Assembly (NCBI GenBank): GCA_016207405.1
Contig: JACQPQ010000021.1
Coordinates: 4,936 to 68,935, forward strand
Length of the DNA stretch: 64,000 nt
Reading direction: 5' to 3'
Source: Gammaproteobacteria bacterium
GTDB lineage: Bacteria; Pseudomonadota; Gammaproteobacteria; JACQPQ01
This document shows, one piece after another, positions 3,542 to 55,020 of the stretch; position 1 is the first letter of the stretch; every line of letters begins with the position of its first letter. Below the pieces are notes generated by a model. The model worked only from the letters and a program-made list of their open reading frames with translations, had not been told where the DNA came from and made no database searches. Both the position numbers and the translations under genes were made by a program.

Positions 3542-4132
<591 letters not shown>

Positions 4133-12656: not shown

Positions 12657-13385
12657 TTATAGGGCCTCTCGGAGATAAACAGGCAGTGCATGTTCTGGCT
12701 GAAGCGTTTCACCTTTTTCGAACTTCTGGATCGCCAAAGGTATTAAAGCTCTGGCCATAGGATAACAGTTGGGAAACGAGTGGTGCAAATAGGGGGCAAA
12801 TCGTGTTTCTAAAACACTTGAATAAGCTTTCCAACCACTTCCTACCCCAACCCATTCCGTTGCTTTAGATAAGAGATTTTCTGGGATAGAAATTTCAGAA
12901 GGTTTCTGTAGGGTATCCGGGATAATAGTTTTTAAAAGGGTAAGGGATAAGGGGTAAGGGGTAAGGGATAAGGGGTAATGATTGTTTTCTTCAATTTGGT
13001 AAGCGCCCCAATAAACAGCTCCCATGCGGGCATCTTGTACTCCTAGTACCGCTCCCTTCGAAAAAGTAAGATGCGCTTCTTCGGCAAGACAAGCCAAGCT
13101 TGAGACAGCCACAATAGGTAAGTCATGGGCAAAGGCAAGGCTTTGCGCGATGGAGGCCCCCAGGCGAACCCCTGTAAAAGTACCTGGCCCCTGACCAAAA
13201 ACAATCAGATCTAAATTTGAAAAAAAAATGTTGCTTTTGGAAAGCAAATTGTGGATCATACCGAGCACGTGAAGACTTGCTTTTTGAGTGCCCTCTTCTT
13301 GTTGCTCGAGTAAATGATTGTGTACAAGAAGCGCAACGGAGCAACGTTCTGTTGAGGTTTCTAGGGCGAGTATGGTGTAAGACAT
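12657..13385 (-). CDS. tsaB: tRNA threonylcarbamoyladenosine biosynthesis protein TsaB (YeaZ). It carries an in-frame heptamer-repeat insertion.
   Basis: It has the N-terminal MSYTILALETSTERCSVALL motif and a YeaZ fold. Residues YPLSLTPYPLSLT are encoded by (TTACCCC/TTATCCC)n at 12937..12979. Confidence 0.85.
   Translation of the reverse strand: MSYTILALETSTERCSVALLVHNHLLEQQEEGTQKASLHVLGMIHNLLSKSNIFFSNLDLIVFGQGPGTFTGVRLGASIAQSLAFAHDLPIVAVSSLACLAEEAHLTFSKGAVLGVQDARMGAVYWGAYQIEENNHYPLSLTPYPLSLTLLKTIIPDTLQKPSEISIPENLLSKATEWVGVGSGWKAYSSVLETRFAPYLHHSFPNCYPMARALIPLAIQKFEKGETLQPEHALPVYLREAL
12937..12979. repeat. (GGGTAAG/GGATAAG)x6 heptamer tandem array inside tsaB
   Basis: The sequence is aagggtaagggataaggggtaaggggtaagggataaggggtaa. 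It is 42 bp, which is a multiple of 3, and is in-frame. It is G4-capable on the plus strand. Confidence 0.75.
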
Positions 13386-13450: not shown

Positions 13451-14434
13451 ATGTCTCACCAAATGGTTGTAAGCGCATTGAACCAGGGAGAGTTTTTCAT
13501 TTATTCGCATCTACAACAATCGCTTGTAATCCCCATTATTTGGGGCGGGTTGTTGTGTGCCGTAAATATTCCTGCGCTCGCTTCAGACAACAGTCTTCTT
13601 CCCATGACAAACATGGCACGATGTACAAAGTGTCATGATGAAAACACCTCCCCCGTTTTACCTTTATTAAAATCTAAACATGCCGTAGTAGCGGACAAAA
13701 GAACTCCATTTGCAGGGGAAGCATGCCAGACCTGTCACGGGTTAAGTGAAGAACACATGAAAGGTTCTGAAGATGGAGGGCCGCGCCCTTCTCCCAGCGT
13801 TCGATTTGGTTCCAAGTCCAACACCCCTCTTTCAACTCAAAATGAATCCTGTTTAGCCTGCCACCGTTCTGGTTTGCGGATGGAATGGAAAGGCAGTCCA
13901 CATGAAATGAAAGGGGTGGGGTGCATTAGCTGTCATACCCTACACACCGGTTCGGATAAAGTTTTAGATAAAAAAAACCAAGCGGAAGTTTGTTTTACCT
14001 GTCACAAAACACAGAGGGCGGAGAGTCATAAGCTTTCGTCTCATCCCATTCAAGAAGGGAAAGTCGTCTGTTCCTCTTGCCATAATCCCCATGGTGCAGT
14101 AGGGCCAAAACTTTTGAGTACCAATACGGTTAATGAAACTTGTTATACCTGTCACGCGGAAAAACGAGGGCCGTTTTTGTGGGAACATGCTCCTGTGAGC
14201 GAAAACTGCATAACCTGTCATACACCTCATGGCTCTATTCATAAGCCGCTTTTGAAATCCAGGGGGCCGTGGTTGTGCCAGCAATGCCATTTGACATCTA
14301 ATCATCATACGAGTGGTGCCTATAACTGTTCTAGTTGTCACTCAACCCGGCGGCTATCGGGCAAAGATTGTTTAAATTGTCATTCAGAGGTGCATGGATC
14401 GAATCATCCTTCTGGTGCAAGGTTAATGAGGTGA
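13451..14434 (+). CDS. Periplasmic decaheme c-type cytochrome, MtrA/MtoA/PioA family
   Basis: There are 11 CXXCH motifs in 327 aa (CTKCH, CQTCH, CLACH, CISCH, CFTCH, CSSCH, CYTCH, CITCH, CQQCH, CSSCH, CLNCH). The size and heme density are typical of MtrA/MtoA. A large OM beta-barrel gene follows immediately. The signal peptide may start at an upstream non-ATG codon. Confidence 0.8.
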   Translation: MSHQMVVSALNQGEFFIYSHLQQSLVIPIIWGGLLCAVNIPALASDNSLLPMTNMARCTKCHDENTSPVLPLLKSKHAVVADKRTPFAGEACQTCHGLSEEHMKGSEDGGPRPSPSVRFGSKSNTPLSTQNESCLACHRSGLRMEWKGSPHEMKGVGCISCHTLHTGSDKVLDKKNQAEVCFTCHKTQRAESHKLSSHPIQEGKVVCSSCHNPHGAVGPKLLSTNTVNETCYTCHAEKRGPFLWEHAPVSENCITCHTPHGSIHKPLLKSRGPWLCQQCHLTSNHHTSGAYNCSSCHSTRRLSGKDCLNCHSEVHGSNHPSGARLMR

Positions 14435-14479
14435 AAGGGATAAGGTGAAAGGGATAAGGGGGAAGGGATAAGGGGTAAG
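14431..14479. repeat. Heptamer tandem array (GTGAAAG GGATAAG)x2 GGGGAAG GGATAAG GGGTAAG
   Basis: It is a seven-unit direct 7-mer array. The first unit supplies the TGA stop of the decaheme gene. Confidence 0.7.
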
Positions 14480-14485
14480 TTTTTG

Positions 14486-14526
14486 TAGGGTGGACAAAGT
14501 GAGCGCAGCGAACGGTCCACCTAAGC
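14486..14526. repeat. REP-like palindrome TAGGGTGGACAAAGTGAGCGCAGCGAACGGTCCACCtaagc
   Basis: GGTGGAC and GTCCACC arms enclose an inner palindromic core. It lies between the decaheme gene and the porin gene. Confidence 0.7.
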
Positions 14527-14581
14527 TTGCAGGTCGAATTCAAGCGAAGCGTAGAATCCGACAATTAAAACTCAAAAAGCA

Positions 14582-16801
14582 ATGAGAATGCATAAAAAGA
14601 TATTGATAGCCATTTTATATTTGGCCGCATCCCCTCTTTGGGCAGAAGATGATCCTTTTTCTTTTGGCCCGAGTGATGGAGGCCTTTCTCTAGAAGCCCC
14701 CGCTCCACCACCACCCAACCGTCCTAAAAGCGAACTTGAAATAGGCCTCGCATATATCAACCGAGATTCCTTTAAATTTGGAGAGTACACGGGACAAGAA
14801 GAAAAAGGCCCTTATGTTATTGGGAATGTAGACATTCATCGCCGAGGTGCTTTTGATAGCAGAACTTTTGACAGTGATGGTGCACTGTATTGGATTTTGA
14901 GAGGTAGAAACTTGGGTCTTACGTCGCGAGAAATGGAGGTGGAGACTGGGGTACAGGGCGATTATAAGGTAGGGATGAGCTATGACCAATTGCCTAAATT
15001 TCAAACGGATACGGCTAAGACGATATTTCGAGGCGTGGGGGGAGATACACTTACATTACCTCCTGGGTGGGTAAGAGCTGACGAAACATCTGATATGACA
15101 GAGCTTAATAATAGTCTTCACGAACTCAAGGTAAGCCATGAACGTAAGAAGTATGGTATGGAGTTTTCCAAATTCTTTTCCCGTGGTTGGGAGTTTAGTG
15201 CGAAGTATCATCGTGAAACGAAAGAGGGGAAAAAGCTTGTAGGGGCCATTATAGAGAGTTGGGACTTTGATGATAGTTTTCATGAACCCACCGTTATTAT
15301 CCCTGAGCCTATCGATTACGTCACTCAACAAGTGGATGTGAAATTGAGCTTTACAGGGAAAAAGAGCCAATTTGAGGGGGGGTATTCCGTATCCTTGTTT
15401 GATAACCACAAAGATTCTCTTATTTGGGAAAATCCATTTTCTGCAATTGGAGGGACGCCTGAAACAAGAGGCAGAATAGGGCTGCCTCCTGATAATCAGT
15501 TTCATCAATTAAAAGCGATCTGGGGATATAACTTCGCCCCAAACACTCGTTTAACAGCCCATGGAACGTTCGGAAGAATGACTCAGGATGAGCGGTTCCT
15601 TCCCTATACCATCAACCCAGATTTGGCCGGTTCAGGCCTTCCTCGTTCTTCTTTAAATGGTAGGGTGGATACCTTAAGTTTTTATACTAAATTATTTTCA
15701 CGGTATGGAAATGCTCTGAATTGGGTGGCCAGTTATCGCTATGAAGACCGGGACAATCGCACGTCAAGGGCTTCCTATATTGGTTATGGTGATGCAGCCG
15801 ATCAAGGGGGGGTAGCAAACGCTAGAACTAATCTTCCTTTTAGTTTCAAGCAGAATCAATTCAAGCTTGATGCAACCTATGAATGGTTTTACCGGACGTA
15901 CTTACAGGGCGGCTATGAATACACTCAAATGGAACGCACGCTTTCAGAAGTGAAGAAAAACCAAGAACATTTATATCGGTTAGAGATCAGACGTAATGCG
16001 TTTGACTCATTAACAGGAGGCATTCGTTTTCTTCAGGCTTATCGGCGGGGATCTTCTTATCGAACCACTGCTCTTCAAACGGCTACGGGAGGGGAACATT
16101 CAATGATTCATCCTCTTCAAAGAAAGTTTTATTTAGCCAGCAAAAATAGAACCCAAGGCGGGGGTTTTATGGAGCTTGATCCAATCGAAGCGGTGACGCT
16201 TCAGTTATCTATTGACTTGTATGAAGATGACTATTTAAAGTCAAAAATGGGATTGCGGAAAAGTATGGGACAAGTTTACGCAATAGATGCGACGATGGTT
16301 CCTAAAAAAGATATTACCACGTATGCTTTTTACACCTATGAACATTCGTATTCCGATCAGAAAGAGCGAGCCTTTGAGACTGTTGCTGAGAGCAATGATC
16401 CACGAAGAGACTGGAATAAAAAAACACGAGAAGGGATAGATACGCTGGGGGCTGGTTTTAAATGGGGTCCTTTTTTGGATCGGTGGGATACGGGGGCGGA
16501 TTATACTTACGCACGCTCGCGTGGAAAGGGCCCTGTGAAAACAGGCTCTGCTTTGGATGCTCCCGATCCACCCATTCGTATGTTAACCACGGAGCTTCAC
16601 CGGTTAGATGTCTTTTTAAAATATAAAATCAAAGAGTCGCTTTCGGCTAAGATGAATGTTCTTTATGAGAAATTCAGTTCGCGGGATTATGCCGTCGATA
16701 AAATACAATTAAACGAAATAGATACGATTTTGATAACGGGTGAAAAGAGCCCAGATTACTCAGTTTCTGTAATTGGACTGTCGTTGTTATATGATTTTTA
16801 G
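14582..16801 (+). CDS. Outer-membrane beta-barrel of a porin-cytochrome complex (MtrB/MtoB/PioB-like)
   Basis: It is 739 aa with a signal peptide (MRMHKKILIAILYLAASPLWA), abundant alternating aromatic beta-strand patterns (YxYxxR, FxF), and a C-terminal LLYDF, which is the OMP Phe terminus. It sits immediately 3' of the decaheme gene. Confidence 0.75.
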   Translation: MRMHKKILIAILYLAASPLWAEDDPFSFGPSDGGLSLEAPAPPPPNRPKSELEIGLAYINRDSFKFGEYTGQEEKGPYVIGNVDIHRRGAFDSRTFDSDGALYWILRGRNLGLTSREMEVETGVQGDYKVGMSYDQLPKFQTDTAKTIFRGVGGDTLTLPPGWVRADETSDMTELNNSLHELKVSHERKKYGMEFSKFFSRGWEFSAKYHRETKEGKKLVGAIIESWDFDDSFHEPTVIIPEPIDYVTQQVDVKLSFTGKKSQFEGGYSVSLFDNHKDSLIWENPFSAIGGTPETRGRIGLPPDNQFHQLKAIWGYNFAPNTRLTAHGTFGRMTQDERFLPYTINPDLAGSGLPRSSLNGRVDTLSFYTKLFSRYGNALNWVASYRYEDRDNRTSRASYIGYGDAADQGGVANARTNLPFSFKQNQFKLDATYEWFYRTYLQGGYEYTQMERTLSEVKKNQEHLYRLEIRRNAFDSLTGGIRFLQAYRRGSSYRTTALQTATGGEHSMIHPLQRKFYLASKNRTQGGGFMELDPIEAVTLQLSIDLYEDDYLKSKMGLRKSMGQVYAIDATMVPKKDITTYAFYTYEHSYSDQKERAFETVAESNDPRRDWNKKTREGIDTLGAGFKWGPFLDRWDTGADYTYARSRGKGPVKTGSALDAPDPPIRMLTTELHRLDVFLKYKIKESLSAKMNVLYEKFSSRDYAVDKIQLNEIDTILITGEKSPDYSVSVIGLSLLYDF

Positions 16802-17401
16802 ATGAGGGGAACAATCATGATTAAACGTCTATGGCAAATTCTATGGGCTCCCAGTAGCCGCTATTCGATAGCTGCCTTACTCATAGTGGGTGCTATCGGG
16901 GGGGTGGTATTCTGGGGTGGGTTTAACACGTTTATGGAATACACGAACAGTTTAAGTTTTTGTACGGGCTGTCATGAAATGAGTAGTACTGTATATCCAG
17001 AGTACCAAAAAACTATTCATTACCAGAACAGAACAGGCGTTCGGGCCGTGTGTGCCGACTGCCACGTTCCACATGAGTGGGGACCCAAATTGCTCCGTAA
17101 AATTCAGGCATCCAATGAGCTTTATCATAAAATCGTGGGAACGATAAACACTCCTGAAAAGTTTGAGGCTAGACGTCTTGAGATGGCAGAGCGGGTGTGG
17201 ACCAGCATGAAGGCGACCGATTCCAGGGAGTGTCGAAACTGCCATGACTTTACGGCGATGGAATTAGAAAGGCAAAAGCCGCTTGCACGTACGCAGCATG
17301 AAAATGCAATGCGAGAAAAACAAACGTGTATTGACTGCCATAAGGGTATTGCGCATAAACTGGTTCAGCCTGAATTAAAATCAGAAGATTTTATGATGTA
17401 G
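16802..17401 (+). CDS. NapC/NirT/CymA-family membrane tetraheme cytochrome c (quinol dehydrogenase)
   Basis: It has an N-terminal TM helix (IKRLWQILWAPSSRYSIAALLIVGAIGGVVFWGGF) and four CXXCH motifs (CTGCHEM, CADCHVPH, CRNCHDF, CIDCHKGIAH). It aligns with the NapC N-terminus. Its TAG stop is the first three bases of a REP element. Confidence 0.85.
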   Translation: MRGTIMIKRLWQILWAPSSRYSIAALLIVGAIGGVVFWGGFNTFMEYTNSLSFCTGCHEMSSTVYPEYQKTIHYQNRTGVRAVCADCHVPHEWGPKLLRKIQASNELYHKIVGTINTPEKFEARRLEMAERVWTSMKATDSRECRNCHDFTAMELERQKPLARTQHENAMREKQTCIDCHKGIAHKLVQPELKSEDFMM

Positions 17402-18498: not shown

Positions 18499-19002
18499 TC
18501 AGCCAGGACTATTTACCACGTGGTCGATGACAAGTTGAAGATCTCGACTCCCCACCTTAGCCGTTACAGGCTGACTTTCCAAGTCCCCCTTCTGAAGATG
18601 CGCATCTCCAGATTTTGAAATACGCGCAATAATAGTGGCTTTCGGAAACTGAGAAAGGGTTAGATCAGGCGTCATAGCCATGCTGTCATTTAAAACAAAT
18701 GACTTGGGTAAGTCTCGAACTTCCGCGCGAATAACCGCCAAAGGCAATTGTGGCCCGTCCACGGCTTTTGCAAAAATAAATACGAGATCGGTAGGGGAAG
18801 TTTGATTGGCTAAATCAGGGGTAAGCGAAACGGTTCCAGAAACGCTGGTCACGTCTCCCCCTGCTTCACCGCCCATAACGACTTCTGGTGAGATTTTTGT
18901 TTTTGCAAAATAAGAAAAATAAACAACACCGATGGCTATGAGAGCCACGCTCATTAAGAGGATGAGCTTTATGTTTGAGATCCCATAATAGGTTTGTCGC
19001 AT
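18499..19002 (-). CDS. Membrane-anchored hypothetical protein (one N-terminal TM helix)
   Basis: The product is 167 aa with an N-terminal TM (IKLILLMSVALIAIGVVYFSYFA) and a periplasmic-looking tail containing VRDLPKSFVLNDSMAM. I have only a weak recollection of similarity to the C-terminal region of cytochrome-c biogenesis CcmI. Confidence 0.4.
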   Translation of the reverse strand: MRQTYYGISNIKLILLMSVALIAIGVVYFSYFAKTKISPEVVMGGEAGGDVTSVSGTVSLTPDLANQTSPTDLVFIFAKAVDGPQLPLAVIRAEVRDLPKSFVLNDSMAMTPDLTLSQFPKATIIARISKSGDAHLQKGDLESQPVTAKVGSRDLQLVIDHVVNSPG

Positions 19003-20402
19003 AAAATTTTCTCCTTCTTGTTGTGGTTTCCTCTATATATGTTTTCCAAAGCTTTCAACATTGAGCTTACTTTATGAAAAGTCTCTTGATACTCTGCATC
19101 AAGTGTGGAGTCTACTACGATTCCACCTCCCGCCCAACAGTGAATACTGTTTTGACTGCATACCAAGGTGCGAATGGCAATATTCATATTCATTTTCCCG
19201 CTCGTGCTGATATATCCCAGTGAACCGGTGTACAGAGAACGCCGATGAGGCTCTAAGTTTTCAATAATTTCCATGGCACGAATTTTGGGCGCTCCGGTTA
19301 CCGATCCCCCCGGAAAACAATTTCGGAAGAGCTCCAGAGCGCCCTTGTCACTTGCAAGCTCACCGGTGACATGGCTTACCATATGATGAACATTCTTCAA
19401 TCGTTCTAGAGCAAACAGTTCTGGGACTCGGATGCTTCCAAATTTGCAGCTTTTGCCTAAGTCATTCCTAAGAAGATCAACGATCATGAGGTTTTCAGCC
19501 CGATCTTTTTCGCTGGTATATAGTTCTTCGTATAAACTATGATCTTGTTTAGGTTCGCTTGAACGAGGCCGCGTGCCTTTAATCGGAGAAGTTTTAACGT
19601 AAGGGGGTGTGACCTCTAAAAAACGTTCGGGGGAAAGGCAGAGAACACTCCCCCACGGTATTCTGAAAAAGGCAGAAAAAGCACCTGGGTTAATAGATCT
19701 TAAAGTTTTGTAAGCGAGCCAGGACTCACCCCTGTAAATCGAAGAAAATCGTTGAGCTAAATTTACTTGGTAGCAATCTCCTTCTTTTAAATGGTGGGCA
19801 ATGGTGTAAAAGGCGTGTTTGTAAAAATCATAAGTCATATTGGAGTAAAAAGGGGCATCTAGGGAGAAATGCGAAGATGGCCTGTAAATAGGGGCACCTA
19901 GCAGGCTTTTGAATGGCAGTTTTGTTGTGCCTAAAGAATGAGAGGCGCTGACACAGTAAGTACGTTGTTCGACATGATCGACAATAATCGCCCAGTCGTA
20001 AAAACCTACCGCCATTTCAGGCAGTAGGATATCTGCGGTGCTAAGGGTCGGTAGCACCTCTAACTGCCAAGCGAGATCATAAGCGAAATAGCCTAGCGCG
20101 CCTCCTTGAAAGGGTAAGAATGGATGAATGGATTGAGGGGGCGGCTGTTTTTCCAATTCCTCCTTAAGAACTAACCATGGAGACTGCCGGACTTGCTTTT
20201 TTAAATCTTTGGTTTCAATGAATACTTTATTCTTCCAAGCCGTTATGGTTTTAAAAGGATTAGCGGAGAGAATATCATAACGCCCTGCCGGAGTATTTAA
20301 ATACGGTTGGCAACTATCCAAAAAAATAGGCCATCGGTAAGGAAGTAGCTCTTCTGCGAGAAGGGTACTGTCTTCGTGGTAAGAAAGTTCGGTAAGGTGC
20401 AT
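18969..20402 (-). CDS. pabB: Aminodeoxychorismate synthase component I
   Basis: It aligns end-to-end with E. coli PabB (PFQGGALGYF.YDL, GDCYQVNLAQRF, FSAF.R, PERFL, PIKGT.PR, DRAENLMIVDL.RND, HHMVS.V.G.L, FPGGS.TGAPK.RAMEII.ELE, AGGGIV.DS..E.EYQET). Confidence 0.8.
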   Translation of the reverse strand: MHLTELSYHEDSTLLAEELLPYRWPIFLDSCQPYLNTPAGRYDILSANPFKTITAWKNKVFIETKDLKKQVRQSPWLVLKEELEKQPPPQSIHPFLPFQGGALGYFAYDLAWQLEVLPTLSTADILLPEMAVGFYDWAIIVDHVEQRTYCVSASHSLGTTKLPFKSLLGAPIYRPSSHFSLDAPFYSNMTYDFYKHAFYTIAHHLKEGDCYQVNLAQRFSSIYRGESWLAYKTLRSINPGAFSAFFRIPWGSVLCLSPERFLEVTPPYVKTSPIKGTRPRSSEPKQDHSLYEELYTSEKDRAENLMIVDLLRNDLGKSCKFGSIRVPELFALERLKNVHHMVSHVTGELASDKGALELFRNCFPGGSVTGAPKIRAMEIIENLEPHRRSLYTGSLGYISTSGKMNMNIAIRTLVCSQNSIHCWAGGGIVVDSTLDAEYQETFHKVSSMLKALENIYRGNHNKKEKILCDKPIMGSQT

Positions 20403-20477
20403 GGCTGTTCTAAAGGGTCAAATTAAACATAGTAAGGGCTGGCACGTTTTTGTGTAATCCCTCATTGATGGGGGGTA

Positions 20478-20661
20478 GTTTGCTGTGTATTTACCGCTGC
20501 CTGCTGCTCGCTAAAAGTCCCCTGCGCTCCTAGAATTTTTCCGGCCGCACACATTCGGCATCCTGCCTCATGTGTGCTAAAAATGCGTCCTGCATTTTTT
20601 CCGGAAAAATTCTACGTCGCTCGGGGACGCTCGCAAAGGCAGCGGTAAATACACAGCAAAC
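20478..20661. mobile_element. MITE-like non-coding element, copy A (184 bp), with perfect 24-bp terminal inverted repeats and a conserved structured core
   Basis: The termini GTTTGCTGTGTATTTACCGCTGCC and GGCAGCGGTAAATACACAGCAAAC are perfect reverse complements. The core (about 20502..20637) is about 88% identical to 37981..38116. It contains internal palindromes (GCACACAT...ATGTGTGC and TTTTTCCGGAAAAA). There is no ORF. Confidence 0.7.
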
Positions 20662-20691
20662 CACCCTCCCCACCAATTCTAGGCTAGGGGA

Positions 20692-21966
20692 TCAGGAGGT
20701 GGCTAGCTGTGCCTGTAAGAAGCGATGAAGATCAGAAAGCAGAATAAGCTGTGGCTGTTTTGTTTTGCGATGTCGATATTCAACGCTATTTTGTGCAAGC
20801 GTTTTTTCACTCACGACGAGGCGATGGGGAATGCCTATGAGGTCGCTCGTTGCAAGTAGCACGCCTGGACTCTCCGCACGGTCATCCAGAGCGACAGTCC
20901 ATCCGCTTTGAATCAAATCCGCATAAAGCTTTTCGGAAATTCCCTGTACCTCTCGTGAACGATGAAACCCAATCGGCACGATGATAACCTGAAAGGGCGC
21001 AAGAGCGTCCCCCCATATAATGCCAGCGGGATCATGATTTTGCTCGACGGCGGCTGCCACAATACGAGAAATACCAATGCCATAACACCCCATCGTCAGA
21101 ACAGGTGCCTCGCCTTTTTCATTTAAAACGGTTGCCTTTAGAGATTCGCTATACTTTGTGCCGAGTTGAAAGATGTGTCCTACTTCAATGCCTTTAGCAA
21201 TAGAAAGAATGCCTTCCCCATCAGGACTTCTCTCGCCTTCTTTTAAGTGACGAACTTCAGGACAATTGATGTTGCTTGCAAAATCGCTTTCTGTGGAATA
21301 AATAAGTGTGTCTTCTCCAGAGTTTGCTAAAACGTGAAACTCGTGGGATAAATTACCTCCCATAGTTCCCGAATCCGCTTTGACCATCCTAAATTGAAGG
21401 CCCAATCGTGTAAAAATAGTCTGGTAGGCCCCTCGCATAGCTTGGTAGGTGTTGGAAAGACATTCTTTGGTTAGATGAAATGAATAAGCATCTTTCATCA
21501 AGAATTCACGGGCGCGCATTACGCCAAAACGCGGTCGGATTTCATCTCGGAATTTTGTTTGAATTTGATAGAGTATGATGGGAAGCTGTTTATGACTTCG
21601 GAGCTCCCTTCTTGCAAGATCAGTAATGACTTCTTCGTGGGTAGGTCCCAAACAAAATTCGTGTTTGTTTCTGTCCTGAAACCGGAGCAATTCGGGACCA
21701 AATTTATCCCAGCGACCTGACTCTTTCCATAATTCGGCAGGTTGTACCGTAGGCATTAAGATCTCTTGCGCACCGATACGGTTCATTTCTTCCCGCACAC
21801 ACGCCTCAACGTTCCGTAGAACCCGTAAACCCAGTGGTAACCAGGTATAAAGCCCTGAAGCGAGCTTACGGACGAGGCCCGCACGCAACATGAGCTGATG
21901 GCTGATAAGCTCCGCATCCGAAGGTGTTTCTTTCAAATGAGCCAATAAAAAGTGAGAGCATCGCAT
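20692..21966 (-). CDS. proS: Proline--tRNA ligase (short form lacking the INS editing domain)
   Basis: The N-terminus [50 protein letters not shown] matches E. coli ProS. The length is 424 aa. Confidence 0.9.
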
Positions 21967-36355: not shown

Positions 36356-37462
36356 GTGAATACGACCGAAGAAATTATTGAGAGTCTCCGTCAGGGCCAA
36401 ATGGTCGTCATTATGGACGACGAAGACCGAGAAAATGAAGGTGATCTGGTTATGGCAGCGGCGAGGGTGATGCCCCGCGACATCAATTTTATGGCTCGCT
36501 ACGGCCGAGGGCTGATTTGTTTAACTTTGTGTAAAGAGCGTTGTCATCAATTGCGACTGCCCCTTATGGTACAGGATAACTTTTCACGGTTTGGTACGCG
36601 CTTTACGGTTTCAATTGACGCAAGCGATGGGATTGCCACGGGTATTTCAGCTGCTGACCGTGCAGCGACCATTCAAAAAGCCGTAGCCCCCCACGCAAAA
36701 CCAGAAGATTTTGTTCAACCCGGTCATGTCTTTCCCCTCATGGCAGAGCCTGGGGGCGTGCTCTATCGAGCAGGGCATACCGAAGCAGGCTGTGACTTGG
36801 CACACCTTTGCGGGTTTTTTCCTGCTGCGGTTATCGTCGAAATTTTAAATGAGGATGGAACGATGGCAAGGCGAGCCGATCTCGAACAGTTTGCAAACCA
36901 GCATGGGCTCAAAATAGGAACCATTTCGGATTTGATTCACTATCGCTTAACCCATGAAAAAACAATCGAGCGGGTGGTTGAAACAGACTGTGAAACCGAA
37001 TACGGCGTATTTCGCCTTTTATCGTATGTGGATACCCTGCATGGGCAAAGCCATATTGCTTTCACTTTGGGAAGTATAAATCCTGATGAGCCTGTCTTGG
37101 TTCGTGTCCATTTGGAAGACTCCCTTGAAGAAGTTTTGGGTGTTAAAAAAGAAGGCGTCCATTGGTCTTTATCTTCCGCCCTGCAGAAAATAAAGCACCA
37201 TGGGCAAGGGGTTGTCGTTATTTTGGGGAAAGATAAACCCCTCACTTCTTTTGTCGAACAACAGACCCTTTCTCGAAACAAAGCACGGTTGGATGAAACT
37301 TCTCTCAATACTTTAGACGTCCGGACGATTGGGGTAGGCTGTCAGATCCTTCATGACTTGGGGGTTCGAAAAATGAAAGTGATGAGTGCCCCCAAACGGT
37401 TCCCTGGGTTGGCGGGATTTCAATTAGAAGTGGTAGAATACGTCCCTTATGTCGCATATTGA
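36356..37462 (+). CDS. ribBA: RibB / GTP-cyclohydrolase-II-like fusion (RibBA). The C-terminal domain appears catalytically degenerate.
   Basis: The N-terminal DHBP synthase motifs are present ([21 protein letters not shown]). The C-terminal half aligns with RibA but lacks the Zn-ligand cysteines (no CxxC...CDC). Confidence 0.8.
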
Positions 37463-37913
37463 AGGGTATCTCAAACTTGCAGAGCCCGTACGTATTGCTA
37501 TTCTAGCCAGTCGTTGTAACCATTTTGTGGTAGATAGTTTAGTTGCAGGCGCTATGGATGCTCTCAAGCGGCATGGGTTATCCGAATCCGCAGTCGATCT
37601 GATTCATGTTCCAGGGGCTTTTGAATTACCTTTAGCAGCAGACGTTATTGCGGCGAATCGAAAGCACCAAGGGATTGTGGCCTTGGGTGCGATCGTCCGA
37701 GGGGAGACGCCGCATTTTGAATATCTTGCGGGGAGCTGTGTTCAAAGTCTTCAAGCGGTGTCTGTGAAACATGGAGTGCCGATTGGGTTGGGTGTTTTAA
37801 CGGTTAATACGGTTCCTCAGGCTATTGAACGTTCTGGCGCAAAGGCTGGAAACAAAGGGGCAGAAGCCGCTTTAGCTGTGATTGAAATGATAGATTTACT
37901 GAAGAAATTGTGA
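37449..37913 (+). CDS. ribH: 6,7-dimethyl-8-ribityllumazine synthase
   Basis: It contains RIAILASRCNHFVVDSLVAGAMDAL...VPGAFELP and has a length of 154 aa. Confidence 0.9.
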   Translation: MSHIEGYLKLAEPVRIAILASRCNHFVVDSLVAGAMDALKRHGLSESAVDLIHVPGAFELPLAADVIAANRKHQGIVALGAIVRGETPHFEYLAGSCVQSLQAVSVKHGVPIGLGVLTVNTVPQAIERSGAKAGNKGAEAALAVIEMIDLLKKL

Positions 37914-37953
37914 ACTGTTCTCAAGATGTTCCCAAACATTTCTAATATCTTGA

Positions 37954-38143
37954 GGTTCTTGGGAGAGTATTTTCTCCTCCAGTGCTCGCAAAAGTGTCCC
38001 TGCGCTCCTAGAATTTTTCAGGCCGCACACAGTCGGCATCTTGCCTCCAGTGCGCTAAAAATGCATCCTGCATTTTTGCCTGAAAAATTCTACGTCGCTC
38101 GGGACACGCGCGCACAGGAGGAGAAAATACTCTCCCAAGAACC
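37954..38143. mobile_element. MITE-like non-coding element, copy B (190 bp)
   Basis: The termini GGTTCTTGGGAGAGTATTTTCTCCTCC and GGAGGAGAAAATACTCTCCCAAGAACC are perfect 27-bp reverse complements, and they differ from the copy-A termini. The core (37981..38116) is about 88% identical to 20502..20637. The track ORF 37926..38183 merely reads through it. Confidence 0.7.
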
Positions 38144-38166
38144 TCTTCAGACTTTTAGACCACTCA

Positions 38167-39249
38167 ATGAACCGTCCTTTTAATTTTTCTGCAGGGCCTG
38201 CGATGTTGCCGGATGAAGTGCTTAAGACGGCACAAGAAGAACTGATCTCTTGGCAGGGGAAAGGCGTATCGGTTATGGAGGTAAGTCATAGAAGCGAAGC
38301 TTTTATGACGCTTGTCCAACAAACAGAGCAGGATCTAAGAGCACTTTTAAACATTCCAGAGCATTACAAAGTATTTTTTATGGCAGGAGGGGGATCGGGA
38401 CAGTTTGCAGCTGTGCCACTCAATCTTTTGGGCGTGAAAAAGCAAGCGGATTACCTTATCACAGGAACTTGGTCAGAAAAGGCTAGAAAACAAGCCGAAC
38501 TGTACTGCACGCCCAATATCGTTGCTCATGCAGAAGACACACAGTTTAAAGCGGTTCCGCCTGTTGCCACTTGGAAATTAAATCGAAATGCGGCTTATTT
38601 TCACTTTACTCCCAATGAGACTATTCATGGGTTAGAATACCACGAACTGCCTGTAACCGTAGAAACCCCCATCGTTGCGGACATGACCTCTAATCTTTTG
38701 TCAAGACCACTTGAGGTTTCTCATTATGGTGAGATCTATGCGGGAGTTCAGAAAAACATGGGGCCTGCTGGGCTTGCCGTTGTTATCGTGCGGGAAGATC
38801 TCGTCAATAACCCTTTGCCCATAACGCCTTTTATCTTAAATTATGGTTTACAGGCCAAGGAACATTCCCTACTCAATACACCGCCCACTTTTATACTCTA
38901 TATGGTGGCGCTCGTCTTAAAATGGGTGATTGGCCAAGGGGGGGTGTCCGCTATGGCTCTTCGTACTCGCCGTAAGTCGGAGAAGCTTTATCAGGCTATT
39001 GATCTCTCTCCCTTTTATAGGAATTCTGTCGAACCCGCTTATCGTTCGTGGACCAATATTCCGTTCACTCTGGTTAATCCGAAACTTGAAACGTTATTTT
39101 TGAACGAGGCAGAAGCGGAAGGGTTATTTGGATTAAAGGGACATCGTCTAGTTGGTGGGATAAGAGCGAGTCTGTATAATGCCATGCCTGAGAGTGGTGT
39201 TGACGCATTGATTCACTTTATGCGTGAATTTGAAAGAAAACGAGGTTAG
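38167..39249 (+). CDS. serC: Phosphoserine aminotransferase
   Basis: It has the N-terminus MNRPFNFSAGPAMLP, a PLP fold and a length of 360 aa. Confidence 0.9.
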   Translation: MNRPFNFSAGPAMLPDEVLKTAQEELISWQGKGVSVMEVSHRSEAFMTLVQQTEQDLRALLNIPEHYKVFFMAGGGSGQFAAVPLNLLGVKKQADYLITGTWSEKARKQAELYCTPNIVAHAEDTQFKAVPPVATWKLNRNAAYFHFTPNETIHGLEYHELPVTVETPIVADMTSNLLSRPLEVSHYGEIYAGVQKNMGPAGLAVVIVREDLVNNPLPITPFILNYGLQAKEHSLLNTPPTFILYMVALVLKWVIGQGGVSAMALRTRRKSEKLYQAIDLSPFYRNSVEPAYRSWTNIPFTLVNPKLETLFLNEAEAEGLFGLKGHRLVGGIRASLYNAMPESGVDALIHFMREFERKRG

Positions 39250-44825: not shown

Positions 44826-44855
44826 GGGTTAGTGGTTAGTGATTAGTGGTTGGTG
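44826..44855. repeat. (GGTTAGT/GATTAGT)x4 heptamer array
   Basis: The sequence is gggttagtggttagtgattagtggttggtgg. On the minus strand this is (CCACTAA)n. It encodes the RluC C-terminus (TPPTTNH) and stop and ends 4 bp before the next gene's ATG. Confidence 0.65.
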
Positions 44856-45813
44856 GAGTCGGTAGGAGAGGCGCAAGCAGACGAACCAGGCATTTTTTTA
44901 ACTCCTCAGGCAATGGGGCCGTAATATTCATAACTTTCTTCTTATCTGGCAGCTTAAAAGCGATTTGATGCGCATGCAAAAACAATCGTGCTAAGCCATA
45001 TTGGCGCATGTGTTGATTAAACTTTTTGTCCCCATATTTTTCATCTCCGGCTATTGCGTGACCTATCGCTTGTGCATGGACGCGGATCTGATGCGTGCGT
45101 CCTGTATGGGGCCGCACTTCTACTAAGGTCGTTTCCTTGTAGACATTGATGGGGGTAAAAGTTGTATGAGCCATTTTACCTTCTTTTTTCACACAAACCA
45201 TTCGTTCACCCGAAACCAGTTGGCTTTTAAATAAGGGGAGTTCTACATTTTTGTGTTTGAAAGAACAGTGTCCTTTCAGCAAGGCGAGATAGATTTTTTG
45301 TACAGTCCCATGTACAAACTGTTCATGAAGATATTTTAAAACGCTTCTTTTGCAAGCAAATAGCAAACACCCAGAGGAGTCTTTGTCCAACCGATGGACT
45401 AATTCCAATGAGGTGTTTTCTGAGATCATTTTCCGAATAATATCGATAATACTATAAGCAAGCCCACTGCCTCCTTGGACGGCGAAACCAGACGGTTTAT
45501 TGATGACGAGTATATTTTCATCTTTATGGAGTATGGAGGCTTGAAATAATTGAAGAACGCGAGGCGGAATTTCAGGAATCGTAGAAGGTTCAGGAAGACT
45601 AAGGGGTGGAAGGCGGACTTCATCGCCTTCCGCTAAATGGTAGCTGGGCTTCACCCGTTTTTTGTTTACTCGCACCTGCCCCGTTCGTATTAAACGATAT
45701 AGGGCACTTTTGGGTAGCCCTTTTAACCGACTCTTTAAAAAATTATCCAAGCGTTGGTTGTAAAACGAAGGAGCAACGGAAAGGATAGAAACAGGGGTTT
45801 TGGTAGGGTACAT
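44836..45813 (-). CDS. rluC: 23S rRNA pseudouridine synthase, RluC-like
   Basis: It has an S4 domain (LDNFLKSRLKGLPKSALYRLIRTGQVRVNKKRVKP) and the catalytic HRLDKDSSG. Confidence 0.7.
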   Translation of the reverse strand: MYPTKTPVSILSVAPSFYNQRLDNFLKSRLKGLPKSALYRLIRTGQVRVNKKRVKPSYHLAEGDEVRLPPLSLPEPSTIPEIPPRVLQLFQASILHKDENILVINKPSGFAVQGGSGLAYSIIDIIRKMISENTSLELVHRLDKDSSGCLLFACKRSVLKYLHEQFVHGTVQKIYLALLKGHCSFKHKNVELPLFKSQLVSGERMVCVKKEGKMAHTTFTPINVYKETTLVEVRPHTGRTHQIRVHAQAIGHAIAGDEKYGDKKFNQHMRQYGLARLFLHAHQIAFKLPDKKKVMNITAPLPEELKKCLVRLLAPLLPTPPTTNH

Positions 45814-50614: not shown

Positions 50615-50860
50615 TACTTTTGTCTCTGTTATACTCTGAAACCTAAGCAAGCCCCAGCAAATACTTATGACTTTTTACTTGTTCTTTGTTCCATTTTCTG
50701 CGTTGCAAAAAGAGTTACATAGTCAAACTATGCGCCTCTTTTTGCGCCTTGAAAATGGAACAAATTACGGCGTAAAAAGTTACAAGTATTTACTGAGGCT
50801 TGCTTAAATCCCAAAACTTAGAATAAAACTATTGTACAGAAATTTATAGGGAAACTCTTT

Positions 50861-53094: not shown

Positions 53095-55020
53095 ATGGAC
53101 AAGAAATTTACATGTAGAACTGCGGTACAGGCTTTTTTGTTTCTGCCTTTTAAAAAATGCGCAAAACATACAACAATTTGCTTGATAGGATGCCTATTTG
53201 CAATAGCTTTTGCTCTCTATACTAAAGAAGTTGTAGCAGTGTCGCTTACTGATGGCCATGAGTGTACAAGTTCTACACAGTGCTCCTCTGGCTACTGCTA
53301 CCCTGGTCCAGAAGAGAAGAGTTACTGCATTTCCCGTGATGCAAACTGCGCAAAGCCCGGAACAGCAGGGGTTATGGTGGGAGCTTTGTATTCATACAGA
53401 GGAAAGGAATATATATGCCACTCTTCCGGAGGTCTTCAAAAAGCGGAAAAAGTGTCGTTTCTTGATGGCTTTGAGTGTACAAGTTCTACACAGTGCTCCT
53501 CTGGCTACTGCTACCCCGGTCCAAACCAGAAAAATTATTGTACAGCCAGAGAGCAACACTGTGCTTACCCCCAGTCAGCGGGCACACAAATAAAAACGAG
53601 CTATTTCCATGACAAAAAACTCTATTTTTGCTCAACAGTTCGTGGATTTTCTTCTTCTGGGATGTTGGGGTGTGGTCTTACTACAACTCAAATGGAAAAA
53701 CTTTACCCCTACTTTCAAAAAGGGATTAAGCGATGGACAGATTCCTTCGAAGTGGCAGCTAATTACCCACAAGTTCTTTATGATATGCAAACTTTCACTG
53801 CAACTGTCCTATATTTGGCTGCCTACTGCGGCAATCTCGATATGTTAGACCAGCTTGCTACACTGTATCTCATCCCTTTTTCTTATCTGACAGAAGTAGG
53901 CAAAGAAGACAGCCGGTGGATTACTCCAACAGGAATTCCCCCAACAACAGAAACCTCAAGTCGTTTTATGTATCCTTTTGGATACGATCGGGAACAGTTC
54001 GAACCTTCGACAATAGAACCCTCATCAACACGCGATGAAGAGATGCTCTATTCCAGCCAATTTATATATCCTCTAGCTTATCTTCTACGTCGGCTGGCGG
54101 AACTGCCTTCGAATAACCGCACACCAGCAATGCACAAATACATGACTACGGCCACTCCCCTTTTAAGAGGAACGTTTAATCGATGGATGAACCAACCTTC
54201 TATGTGGACATGGACGCACTGCCGATTTCCTTCCAGCCGATCAAATATGAAAGCGTATACTTTCCCAGAATTCGTTTCAGGCAAACTGCAACGGTCACTC
54301 GGTAGTTCCTGGTGCAATGCTATGCTTGAAATTGAACTGTGGGTTGCAGCAGCGGTAACCGAATTTCTTTCGGCAAACAAACGCGGCATGAACTTGGAAT
54401 TAACGCCACAAGAGACTAACACCTTAACCACTTATGCACAGACCACTCTCAAACTCTTTGAATCCAGATTGTCTGAAGGTATATCTACCAGCCCACTCTG
54501 TGGAGGCCGGTGCTCTTATTTGATTTTAGACCGATATGGGATGAGAGGGCATCCAGACCAACCTGATGCTGCTAGCACATGGGATATCTCTCATGGGAGA
54601 CGCCTTGTTCAATTTCTGGAAACCATGTATGCCCCCGAAAACACAAACATCACTCAACCCACTAAAAATGGAAAATGGGTGAAAACTCAATTCGCTAACG
54701 CGATTATCTATCAAATATTTAATGGATCTTGGGATCACCCTCGGTTTGCCAATTTTATGGATGGAGTTAATGTGCACTACCGCTCGTATGAACCTTTCGC
54801 ACTGAGCGATCAATACGCAGACATCGGGTATGCTTTTTGGCAGAGATATAATCGTGATATCACCGAACTCAACAGCTCTTTTTTAAGTATCCTCGAAGGC
54901 AAGAAATCCGATTCCTTTTATGACCACATTCGTCTGAAGGAAGGTCCAGAAGATTTTTACAAAACCGTGTACCACTATTTGGCTTTTGTAGCTTCTCTCA
55001 GTCACCCATGGAGAGAGTAA
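53095..55020 (+). CDS. Membrane-anchored hypothetical protein with two tandem Cys-rich repeats and a large uncharacterised C-terminal domain
   Basis: It is 641 aa with an N-terminal TM helix (ICLIGCLFAIAFALY). It carries two 71-aa repeats with 6 Cys each (DG[HF]ECTSSTQCSSGYCYPGP...). No catalytic motif recognised. Confidence 0.55.
   Translation: MDKKFTCRTAVQAFLFLPFKKCAKHTTICLIGCLFAIAFALYTKEVVAVSLTDGHECTSSTQCSSGYCYPGPEEKSYCISRDANCAKPGTAGVMVGALYSYRGKEYICHSSGGLQKAEKVSFLDGFECTSSTQCSSGYCYPGPNQKNYCTAREQHCAYPQSAGTQIKTSYFHDKKLYFCSTVRGFSSSGMLGCGLTTTQMEKLYPYFQKGIKRWTDSFEVAANYPQVLYDMQTFTATVLYLAAYCGNLDMLDQLATLYLIPFSYLTEVGKEDSRWITPTGIPPTTETSSRFMYPFGYDREQFEPSTIEPSSTRDEEMLYSSQFIYPLAYLLRRLAELPSNNRTPAMHKYMTTATPLLRGTFNRWMNQPSMWTWTHCRFPSSRSNMKAYTFPEFVSGKLQRSLGSSWCNAMLEIELWVAAAVTEFLSANKRGMNLELTPQETNTLTTYAQTTLKLFESRLSEGISTSPLCGGRCSYLILDRYGMRGHPDQPDAASTWDISHGRRLVQFLETMYAPENTNITQPTKNGKWVKTQFANAIIYQIFNGSWDHPRFANFMDGVNVHYRSYEPFALSDQYADIGYAFWQRYNRDITELNSSFLSILEGKKSDSFYDHIRLKEGPEDFYKTVYHYLAFVASLSHPWRE

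Follow-up and report, generated by a model that had tools for sequence, protein, structure and literature searches.

Two lineage-restricted, non-coding hairpin repeats with a conserved core and copy-specific paired arms in a gammaproteobacterial genome

Bacterial miniature repeats are normally defined by their conserved ends, which in classical MITEs (Chunjie, Nezha, Correia and bcr1) are terminal inverted repeats. These MITEs are small, non-coding and hairpin-forming, they lie between co-directional genes that are left intact, and between relatives they appear as empty and filled sites with a short direct repeat (5 bp for bcr1). Compensatory changes have been described for bcr1 (PMC3184786), and the hairpins of REPINs are preserved by compensatory changes where their sequence is free (PMC3116915). 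REPINs are non-coding intergenic elements of ~100-200 nt that form a single long hairpin; their ends are conserved REP 16-mers belonging to a repeated family while their centre is variable, a single-stranded DNA intermediate has been proposed for them, and they are mobilised by RAYT transposases (Y1 HUH). A further group of IS elements inserts into REP or other palindromic units, so that the insert comes to be flanked by palindrome halves (PMC1525189, PMC12288879). This group includes IS1397, ISPpu9/IS110 and IS1111, whose targets are short, belong to abundant families and also occur empty, and whose inserts encode a transposase. Finally, bacteria are known to undergo template switching at quasipalindromes (PMC7202029), and in Proteobacteria this process is a proposed means of keeping inverted repeats perfect (PMC5941160).

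Here we compare with these systems two repeats, copies A and B, from one stretch of 64,000 nucleotides (64 kb) of an uncultured gammaproteobacterium, referred to as the window. Like classical MITEs, both copies are small, non-coding and hairpin-forming, sit between co-directional genes that remain intact, and occur more than once (two copies in 64 kb) at sites that are filled in the window and empty in a relative; copy B also has a short direct repeat, a candidate target duplication. In contrast to classical MITEs, their long inverted repeat is internal and fails as a conserved terminal repeat, the arm sequences differing between copies; the copies have just an 11-nt left end in common, and there is no known cognate IS. 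By the long inverted repeat they are not classical MITEs; by their outer ends and a 5-bp duplication they may be. With REPINs they share the non-coding intergenic position, the size, the single long hairpin, compensatory changes (three double and no one-sided changes in 49 core pairs) and a putative single-stranded DNA intermediate. Unlike in REPINs, conservation is in the centre and variation in the outer 29-33-bp helix, the conserved repeated REP arms are missing (the arms are not repeated in the window), no RAYT was seen among the ~50 scanned ORFs of the window, and copy B has a possible 5-bp duplication; A and B are not REPINs in the strict sense. As at the sites of IS1397, IS110 and IS1111, the insert is flanked by two palindrome halves, but here the arms are unique, long and in B perfect, the insert is non-coding, the arms are absent from the orthologous sites, and half-palindromes without the insert were not found, there being no other arm copy in 64 kb. 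Concerted evolution by template switching can explain the perfect arms and the double-sided substitutions with no need for RNA-level selection; it maintains repeats and is not itself a family of elements, and it leaves the conserved core and the fully different arms unexplained.

Anatomy of the two copies and support for the assembly

Copies A and B have the same orientation in the contig, whereas the genes flanking them lie on opposite strands, and each copy is placed between co-directional housekeeping genes. The features of the two loci are given below.

18969-20402, minus strand: pabB/trpE-like gene, on one side of copy A
20403-20691, plus strand: copy A, the whole proS-pabB spacer, 289 nt
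20405-20415: left-end 11-mer of copy A
20470-20669: hairpin of copy A, with arms at 20470-20502 and 20637-20669 and the core at 20503-20636
20692-21966, minus strand: short-form proS, on the other side of copy A
37449-37913, plus strand: ribH, upstream of copy B
37911-37915, no strand: left copy of TGAAC, candidate target-site duplication, overlapping the ribH stop codon
37915-37925, plus strand: left-end 11-mer CTGTTCTCAAG, 10/11 identical with copy A, candidate true terminus
37916-38167, plus strand: inferred full inserted unit of copy B, 252 nt, filling the ribH-serC spacer
37952-37980, plus strand: left arm, 29 nt, of the perfectly paired, copy-specific outer helix
37983-38115, plus strand: conserved core of copy B, ~133 nt, with end motifs TGCTCGC...GCGCGCA
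38025-38055, plus strand: tip hairpin 1, apical sequence GGCATCTTGCC
38057-38077, plus strand: tip hairpin 2, AAAAATGCATCCTGCATTTTT
38117-38145, plus strand: right arm, 29 nt, fully complementary to 37952-37980
38152-38163, plus strand: imperfect inverted left-end motif CTTTTAGACCAC, possible right-end repeat, weak and not significant alone
38167-39249, plus strand: serC, downstream of copy B
38168-38172, no strand: right copy of TGAAC, within the serC start ATGAAC

The original prediction described the 27-mers at 37954-37980 and 38117-38143 as perfectly paired, and they are; the perfect outer duplex of copy B extends to 29 bp (37952-37980 / 38117-38145). The inner stem of copy B is imperfect (37994-38023 / 38078-38107), and several of its mismatches and bulges are identical in A and B, whereas the outer helix is flawless in B; the shared mismatches and bulges are old or constrained features. 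That copy B carries the core of copy A also holds (88-91% identity, nhmmer E ~1e-46), and a degenerate inner-stem pattern matched the window four times against none expected, once per half in each copy. The arms of copy A are 33 nt long, with 25 consecutive perfect pairs. The arms of A and B had been called unrelated in sequence yet paired, and the pairing stands (29/29 in B, 31/33 in A), while the word "unrelated" appears roughly right: a global alignment of arm against arm gave 17/29 identities (P 0.01-0.04), and an unbiased local alignment of flank plus arm was not significant (P 0.08). Seven of the eight aligned double differences in the arms are transversion-type, as unrelated sequences give, and on these alignments homology of the arms cannot be demonstrated. 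Each arm sequence is confined to a single locus, with no other occurrence in 64 kb. Conservation between the copies is a mosaic of the left-end 11-mer (10/11), the core (~90%) and intervening stretches that are not significantly similar, in which the core lies exactly at the centre of both palindromes and the core-arm junction bases differ (GC/A versus AG/CA).

Copies beyond A and B were not found in any of the data searched. A degenerate 22-mer for either core arm gave six single chance matches in 185,579 GTDB species genomes and four in JGI metagenomes, all unrelated by BLAST, and none in IMG/VR, where two looser core patterns also returned zero matches; blastn of the core against PLSDB plasmids returned nothing. 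The open frame at 37926-38183 had been read as the element translated through, and this is borne out by its lack of protein relatives: a word search of 5.8 billion proteins with the ORF through the core yielded nothing, and a profile of the open frame of both copies against 1.84 billion protein representatives yielded one weak repetitive match (E = 7e-4). Phage and viral collections, searched with the arm sequences only, gave no match, and the idea of the arms as spacer-like phage matches was dropped for want of a significant one. Exact-protein look-ups led to nothing but short Logan contigs from this organism, which break off within the arms. No transposase, integrase or reverse transcriptase was detected by Pfam scan among the ~50 ORFs of at least 120 aa in the 64-kb window. 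A and B are uncatalogued, lineage-restricted, non-coding hairpin repeats of unusual layout.

The sequence derives from a metagenome-assembled genome, and short-read assemblers mis-handle palindromes, as the Logan contigs ending within the arms illustrate, so that a chimeric inverted duplication from assembly or amplification has to be considered. Such an artefact is extremely improbable. The same architecture occurs at two loci with different arms, and both loci run on into correct, syntenic flanking genes. Furthermore, Logan assemblies of two runs (SRR12113401 and SRR12113385) reproduce exactly the flank-arm junctions of A and B and, for B, the arm-core junction, which makes an assembly artefact unlikely, although the two Logan contigs (L007 and L013) stop inside the palindrome arms and these assemblies, though distinct from the MAG contig, may share its reads.

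Several other features of the window and of its nearest relative were recorded alongside the two copies. The proS gene at 20692-21966 encodes a short 424-aa form, ~150 aa below the ~570-aa homologues, whose listed Pfam domains include the extra family PF04073; the short form is restricted to a small set of relatives and is a useful lineage marker. Directly upstream of ribBA-ribH, at 34765-36340, lies an inserted pair of AbiEi antitoxin and AbiEii nucleotidyltransferase toxin genes, where the relative has LemA/TPM genes. A cluster at 13451-17401 encodes a decahaem-type cytochrome, an MtrB/PioB outer-membrane porin and a NapC/NirT (CymA-like) cytochrome, which suggests extracellular electron transfer or iron metabolism. 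Heptamer tandem arrays (GGGTAAG / GGGATAA, complement CCTTACC, GGTTAGT) occur at 4103-4129, 12938-12978, 14429-14479, 32627-32679 and 44827-44856, mostly at gene ends, and are reminiscent of the short tandemly repeated heptamers of other bacteria. An AT-rich 34-nt tandem repeat (28607-28699, 2.7 copies, 96% match) lies just upstream of a Cro/C1-type HTH gene (28705-29181). A 145-nt direct repeat (53225-53369 and 53438-53582, 74% identical) within a 641-aa ORF without a Pfam match (53095-55020) implies an internally repetitive protein.

Two further hairpins were also noted. Hairpin C (50644-50806) has 35-nt arms that are 89% complementary, is unbranched (-80.9 kcal/mol, z -14) and sits in a 258-nt divergent spacer between yicC and rph, and its interior is unrelated to the A/B core. 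A motif common to the arms of A and C, GTATTTAC, was dropped, its orientation relative to the hairpin axis being opposite in the two. Hairpin D, in the relative (Logan SRR22388166, contig L012, 2357-2454), is 98 nt long. Its arms pair perfectly over 19 bp, its tip carries two small hairpins with CATCC loops, and its first base is the final base of the stop codon upstream. CTGCTCG is found just within its left arm, a placement shared with A/B. D was rejected as a homologue of the A/B core (nhmmer E>10; the order of the tip hairpins and the loop strand fit neither orientation), and its likeness to A and B is treated as architectural only.

Insert boundaries and empty sites in the nearest relative

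The nearest relative in the databases is Logan assembly SRR22388166, whose serC and proS are 68% and 75% identical to those of the window, and it retains both ribH-serC and proS-pabB as adjacent pairs. Its ribH stop is separated from the serC start by 3 nt (contig L012), and its proS and pabB overlap by 35 nt (contig L014), with the pabB N-termini aligning from Met1. Since the relative has a 3-nt gap and an overlap at these positions, the whole 253- and 289-nt spacers are lineage-specific, and the hairpins fill only part of them. The palindrome is absent from both orthologous junctions, so that both sites are empty in the nearest relative and filled in the window. Distant relatives (L015-L018, proS ~65% identical) showed no such hairpins and no similarity to the core.

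Copy B offers the clearer boundaries. Deletion of 37916-38172 restores AAATTGTGAACCGTCC, in which the ribH TGA overlaps an in-frame serC GTG, and a TGA/GTG overlap of this kind is a typical translationally coupled junction. The present serC ATG is made up of the last base of the insert, A, and the repeat TGAAC. Identical 5-mers at two fixed positions have a chance of ~0.001, or ~0.01 when some freedom of offset is allowed. Between the arms of copy B and the candidate target duplication there are 36 and 22 nt of unpaired insert DNA. At both loci the spacer opens with CTGTTCT[A/C]AAG, 2-3 nt from the gene boundary, and exact matches to CTGTTCTMAAG number two in 64 kb, at copies A and B only, although the significance of this 11-mer is a post hoc positional argument. 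Its inverted right-end counterpart is weak in B and absent in A. By reading the sequence, no clean direct repeat and no right-end motif could be defined for copy A; xTGGC was considered as its target duplication and rejected, because it would fuse proS to pabB in the reconstructed site.

As both spacers start with CTGTTCT[A/C]AAG, the 27-bp "termini" are better understood as internal stems. The real inserted unit is probably larger than the hairpin, and the 27-29-bp arms probably are internal stems of a ~250-nt element whose true ends lie further out, a reading that draws on one good case (B) and one shared 11-mer. The original prediction had taken the 27-bp arms as the termini of the element, and this part does not stand up well, given that the ribH-serC spacer looks like one insertion with a 5-bp repeat and a shared left 11-mer. 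If the arms are probably not termini, the accompanying argument that MITEs conserve their terminal inverted repeats is weakened. The proposal that the core inserted into pre-existing REP or terminator palindromes fares no better: the arms were not found elsewhere in the window, the junctions of the relative have no palindrome and practically no spacer, and there is no T-tract terminator.

Folding, paired substitutions and the choice between DNA and RNA

On either strand of either copy the predicted fold is one long, stable rod capped by two small hairpins. RNA folding energies for both strands of both copies range from -122 to -135 kcal/mol (z -15 to -17 against shuffles), and copy B folded as DNA is predicted at -79 kcal/mol. 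The original prediction had suggested that pairing is maintained rather than sequence, and this extends to the inside of the core. Among 49 core pairs taken from the structure predicted for copy A, 42 are identical in both copies, three are changed on both sides and still pair, none is changed on one side only, and four are unpaired in copy B. The three double changes (C-G>U-A, C-G>A-U and U-A>G-C) are all Watson-Crick. As a control, sliding the 3' partners by 1-3 columns gave 0-1 double changes, and when 19 random substitutions were placed on the core by simulation, three or more pair-preserving double changes arose in 0.5% of trials (P ~0.005). A shuffle control for covariation is powerless with two sequences (53/500). 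Differences between A and B affect 25% of the unpaired core columns versus 10% of the paired ones.

Pair-preserving changes and very stable predicted folding would also be expected of a structured RNA, in which the two-hairpin tip binds a protein or RNA and the closing helix is selected as RNA, for example as an RNase III processing site or an insulator between co-transcribed genes. Each copy, placed as it is between co-directional genes, would be transcribed together with them, and repeats of the bcr1 type are transcribed, with compensation at the RNA level (PMC3184786). We nevertheless regard this explanation as improbable. Neither copy matched Rfam (Rfam 15), whether by gathering score or at E<=10, and the element is missing from the orthologous operons of the relative. 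Moreover, two of the three compensations are transversion pairs, for which a G-U intermediate is not possible, and one-sided wobble changes number zero. Since A and B share an orientation in the contig while their flanking genes lie on opposite strands, read-through would produce transcripts of one strand from A and of the other strand from B.

Expression signals at the two copies are sparse. At copy B there is no terminator site and no promoter within the element, the single promoter-like match lying in ribH, outside it. Copy A has two weak terminator-like consensus matches, one at the left-arm edge and one inside the core, and its long hairpin is not followed by a T-tract; its promoter matches are weak (9/12 consensus positions), one of them inside the core. 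The ribozyme, terminator and promoter readings were therefore set aside, with no Rfam match and with consensus matches that are weak or outside the element. A -10-like TAGAAT was noted in each core half (20609-20636; 38009-38014 / 38087-38092), pointing inward to the tip, and the minus-strand TAGAAT of copy A has TTGCGA as a -35 at 16-nt spacing, both being consensus matches only.

The evidence leans towards a hairpin acting at the level of DNA rather than RNA, on account of the Watson-Crick-only changes, mostly transversion pairs, the comparably good folding of both strands, the opposite orientation to transcription and the lack of an Rfam match, although with two copies no single point is decisive. 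For the same reasons (no Rfam match, Watson-Crick-only changes and the opposite orientation to the flanking genes), the RNA closing helix put forward in the original prediction is not favoured. Overall, the observation behind that prediction is confirmed and its interpretation is partly supported.

Origin of the arms and the proposed mobile element

What the observations show is the anatomy of the two copies, their insertion relative to the nearest relative, substitutions that preserve pairs and a lack of coding or known RNA signals. Our preferred reading, which we hold tentatively and at somewhat less than even confidence, is that A and B are copies of a mobile hairpin element of the MITE/REPIN kind that is non-coding, non-autonomous and restricted to this lineage, and whose arms are kept paired by arm-to-arm correction. 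The inserted unit would be the whole spacer of ~250-290 nt, with CTGTTCT[A/C]AAG as its left end and, in B, bracketed by the 5-bp TGAAC. Within this unit, the ~133-nt core would form an imperfect stem with a two-hairpin cap, closed by the copy-specific outer helix of 29-33 bp. The constraint would act on DNA, the element having to fold as a single-stranded hairpin or cruciform, and an enzyme provided in trans would presumably recognise it by the conserved tip and bulged inner stem. The outer helix would then need pairing only, not a particular sequence, and its arms may be held Watson-Crick perfect by arm-to-arm copy correction through replication template switching, so that any alteration of one arm would be either lost or transferred to its partner. 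Beyond the observations, what we infer is mobilisation in trans, a single-stranded intermediate, correction as the mechanism that keeps the arms paired, and the route to differing arms. With two copies in all the data, mobility, ends and duplication rest on one or two instances, and no candidate for the mobilising enzyme was seen among the scanned ORFs of the window.

Arm-to-arm correction leaves unexplained the contrast between arms at or near random divergence and a core that differs by ~10%, which calls for a separate origin of the arms or for constraint on the sequence of the core. Mismatches conserved in the inner stem further indicate that correction is not acting everywhere. Our leading guess is that the differing arms come from separate sublineages or recombinant versions of one element and not from a host palindrome, with the core and the ends being sequence-constrained for mobility.

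The mosaic of conservation (11-mer 10/11, core ~90%, the rest not significantly similar) and the exactly central position of the core in both palindromes could also be read as nested elements, a modified form of the original prediction's first idea. Here, the ~133-nt core would itself be a small mobile element inserting at the symmetry centre of palindromic carriers, these being older MITEs with CTGTTCT.AAG ends, and the arms would be halves of two different carriers. Long hairpins lacking this core do exist, namely C (50644-50806) and D (in the relative's L012), and IS elements that target REP palindromes are documented (PMC1525189). However, both carriers are occupied, and neither the 11-mer nor the arms occur elsewhere in the 64 kb, so that there is no empty carrier; the core has no flanking target duplication, and the core-arm junction bases differ. 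Removal of the core would leave loop-less perfect palindromes of 58-66 bp, and the old carriers would still have to have kept perfect arms. Loop-less perfect palindromes of such length are poorly tolerated in bacteria. We consider nesting unlikely.

The contrast between perfect arms (29/29 in B, 25 consecutive pairs in A) and old, shared inner-stem mismatches raises another explanation, in which the core hairpin primes fold-back (template-switch) synthesis that copies ~30 nt of neighbouring DNA in inverted form, so that on or after integration each copy gains a young, perfect, locally derived outer helix. The arms do differ between the copies and are unique in the window, and template switching at quasipalindromes is established in bacteria (PMC7202029, PMC5941160). 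Against this, the 36 and 22 nt of unpaired insert DNA in copy B mean that the arms are not copies of the host flank, two independent events of ~30 nt from the same core boundary would be required, and there is no outgroup in which one arm is native sequence. We judge this origin of the arms distinctly unlikely, more so than nesting. About as improbable as the structured-RNA explanation is a further one, in which recognition goes solely through the double-hairpin tip and bulged inner stem, and mobilisation builds, or simply requires, a ~30-bp perfect stem of arbitrary sequence in each copy; fold-back synthesis producing an inverted duplication beside the core is one way in which it could build the stem. 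Were the stem built in this manner, transposition would be defined by structure and leave inverted rather than direct duplications, which to our knowledge is undescribed for bacterial elements.

In A and B, conservation lies in the centre and the long closing helix retains pairing only, which departs from the usual definition of a miniature repeat. At the level of the host, copy B splits a translationally coupled ribH/serC pair and donates a new start codon to it, and palindromes such as those of A and B break short-read assemblies. With two copies, the finding is a lead and not a result. Should the pattern extend to many copies, this would suggest that the mobilising enzyme reads the folded shape of DNA rather than a terminal sequence, and the repeats would provide a natural case for the rate of arm-to-arm correction in inverted repeats. 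The key question is the origin of the arms, and the significance of these repeats would rise sharply if every copy has its own perfect stem.
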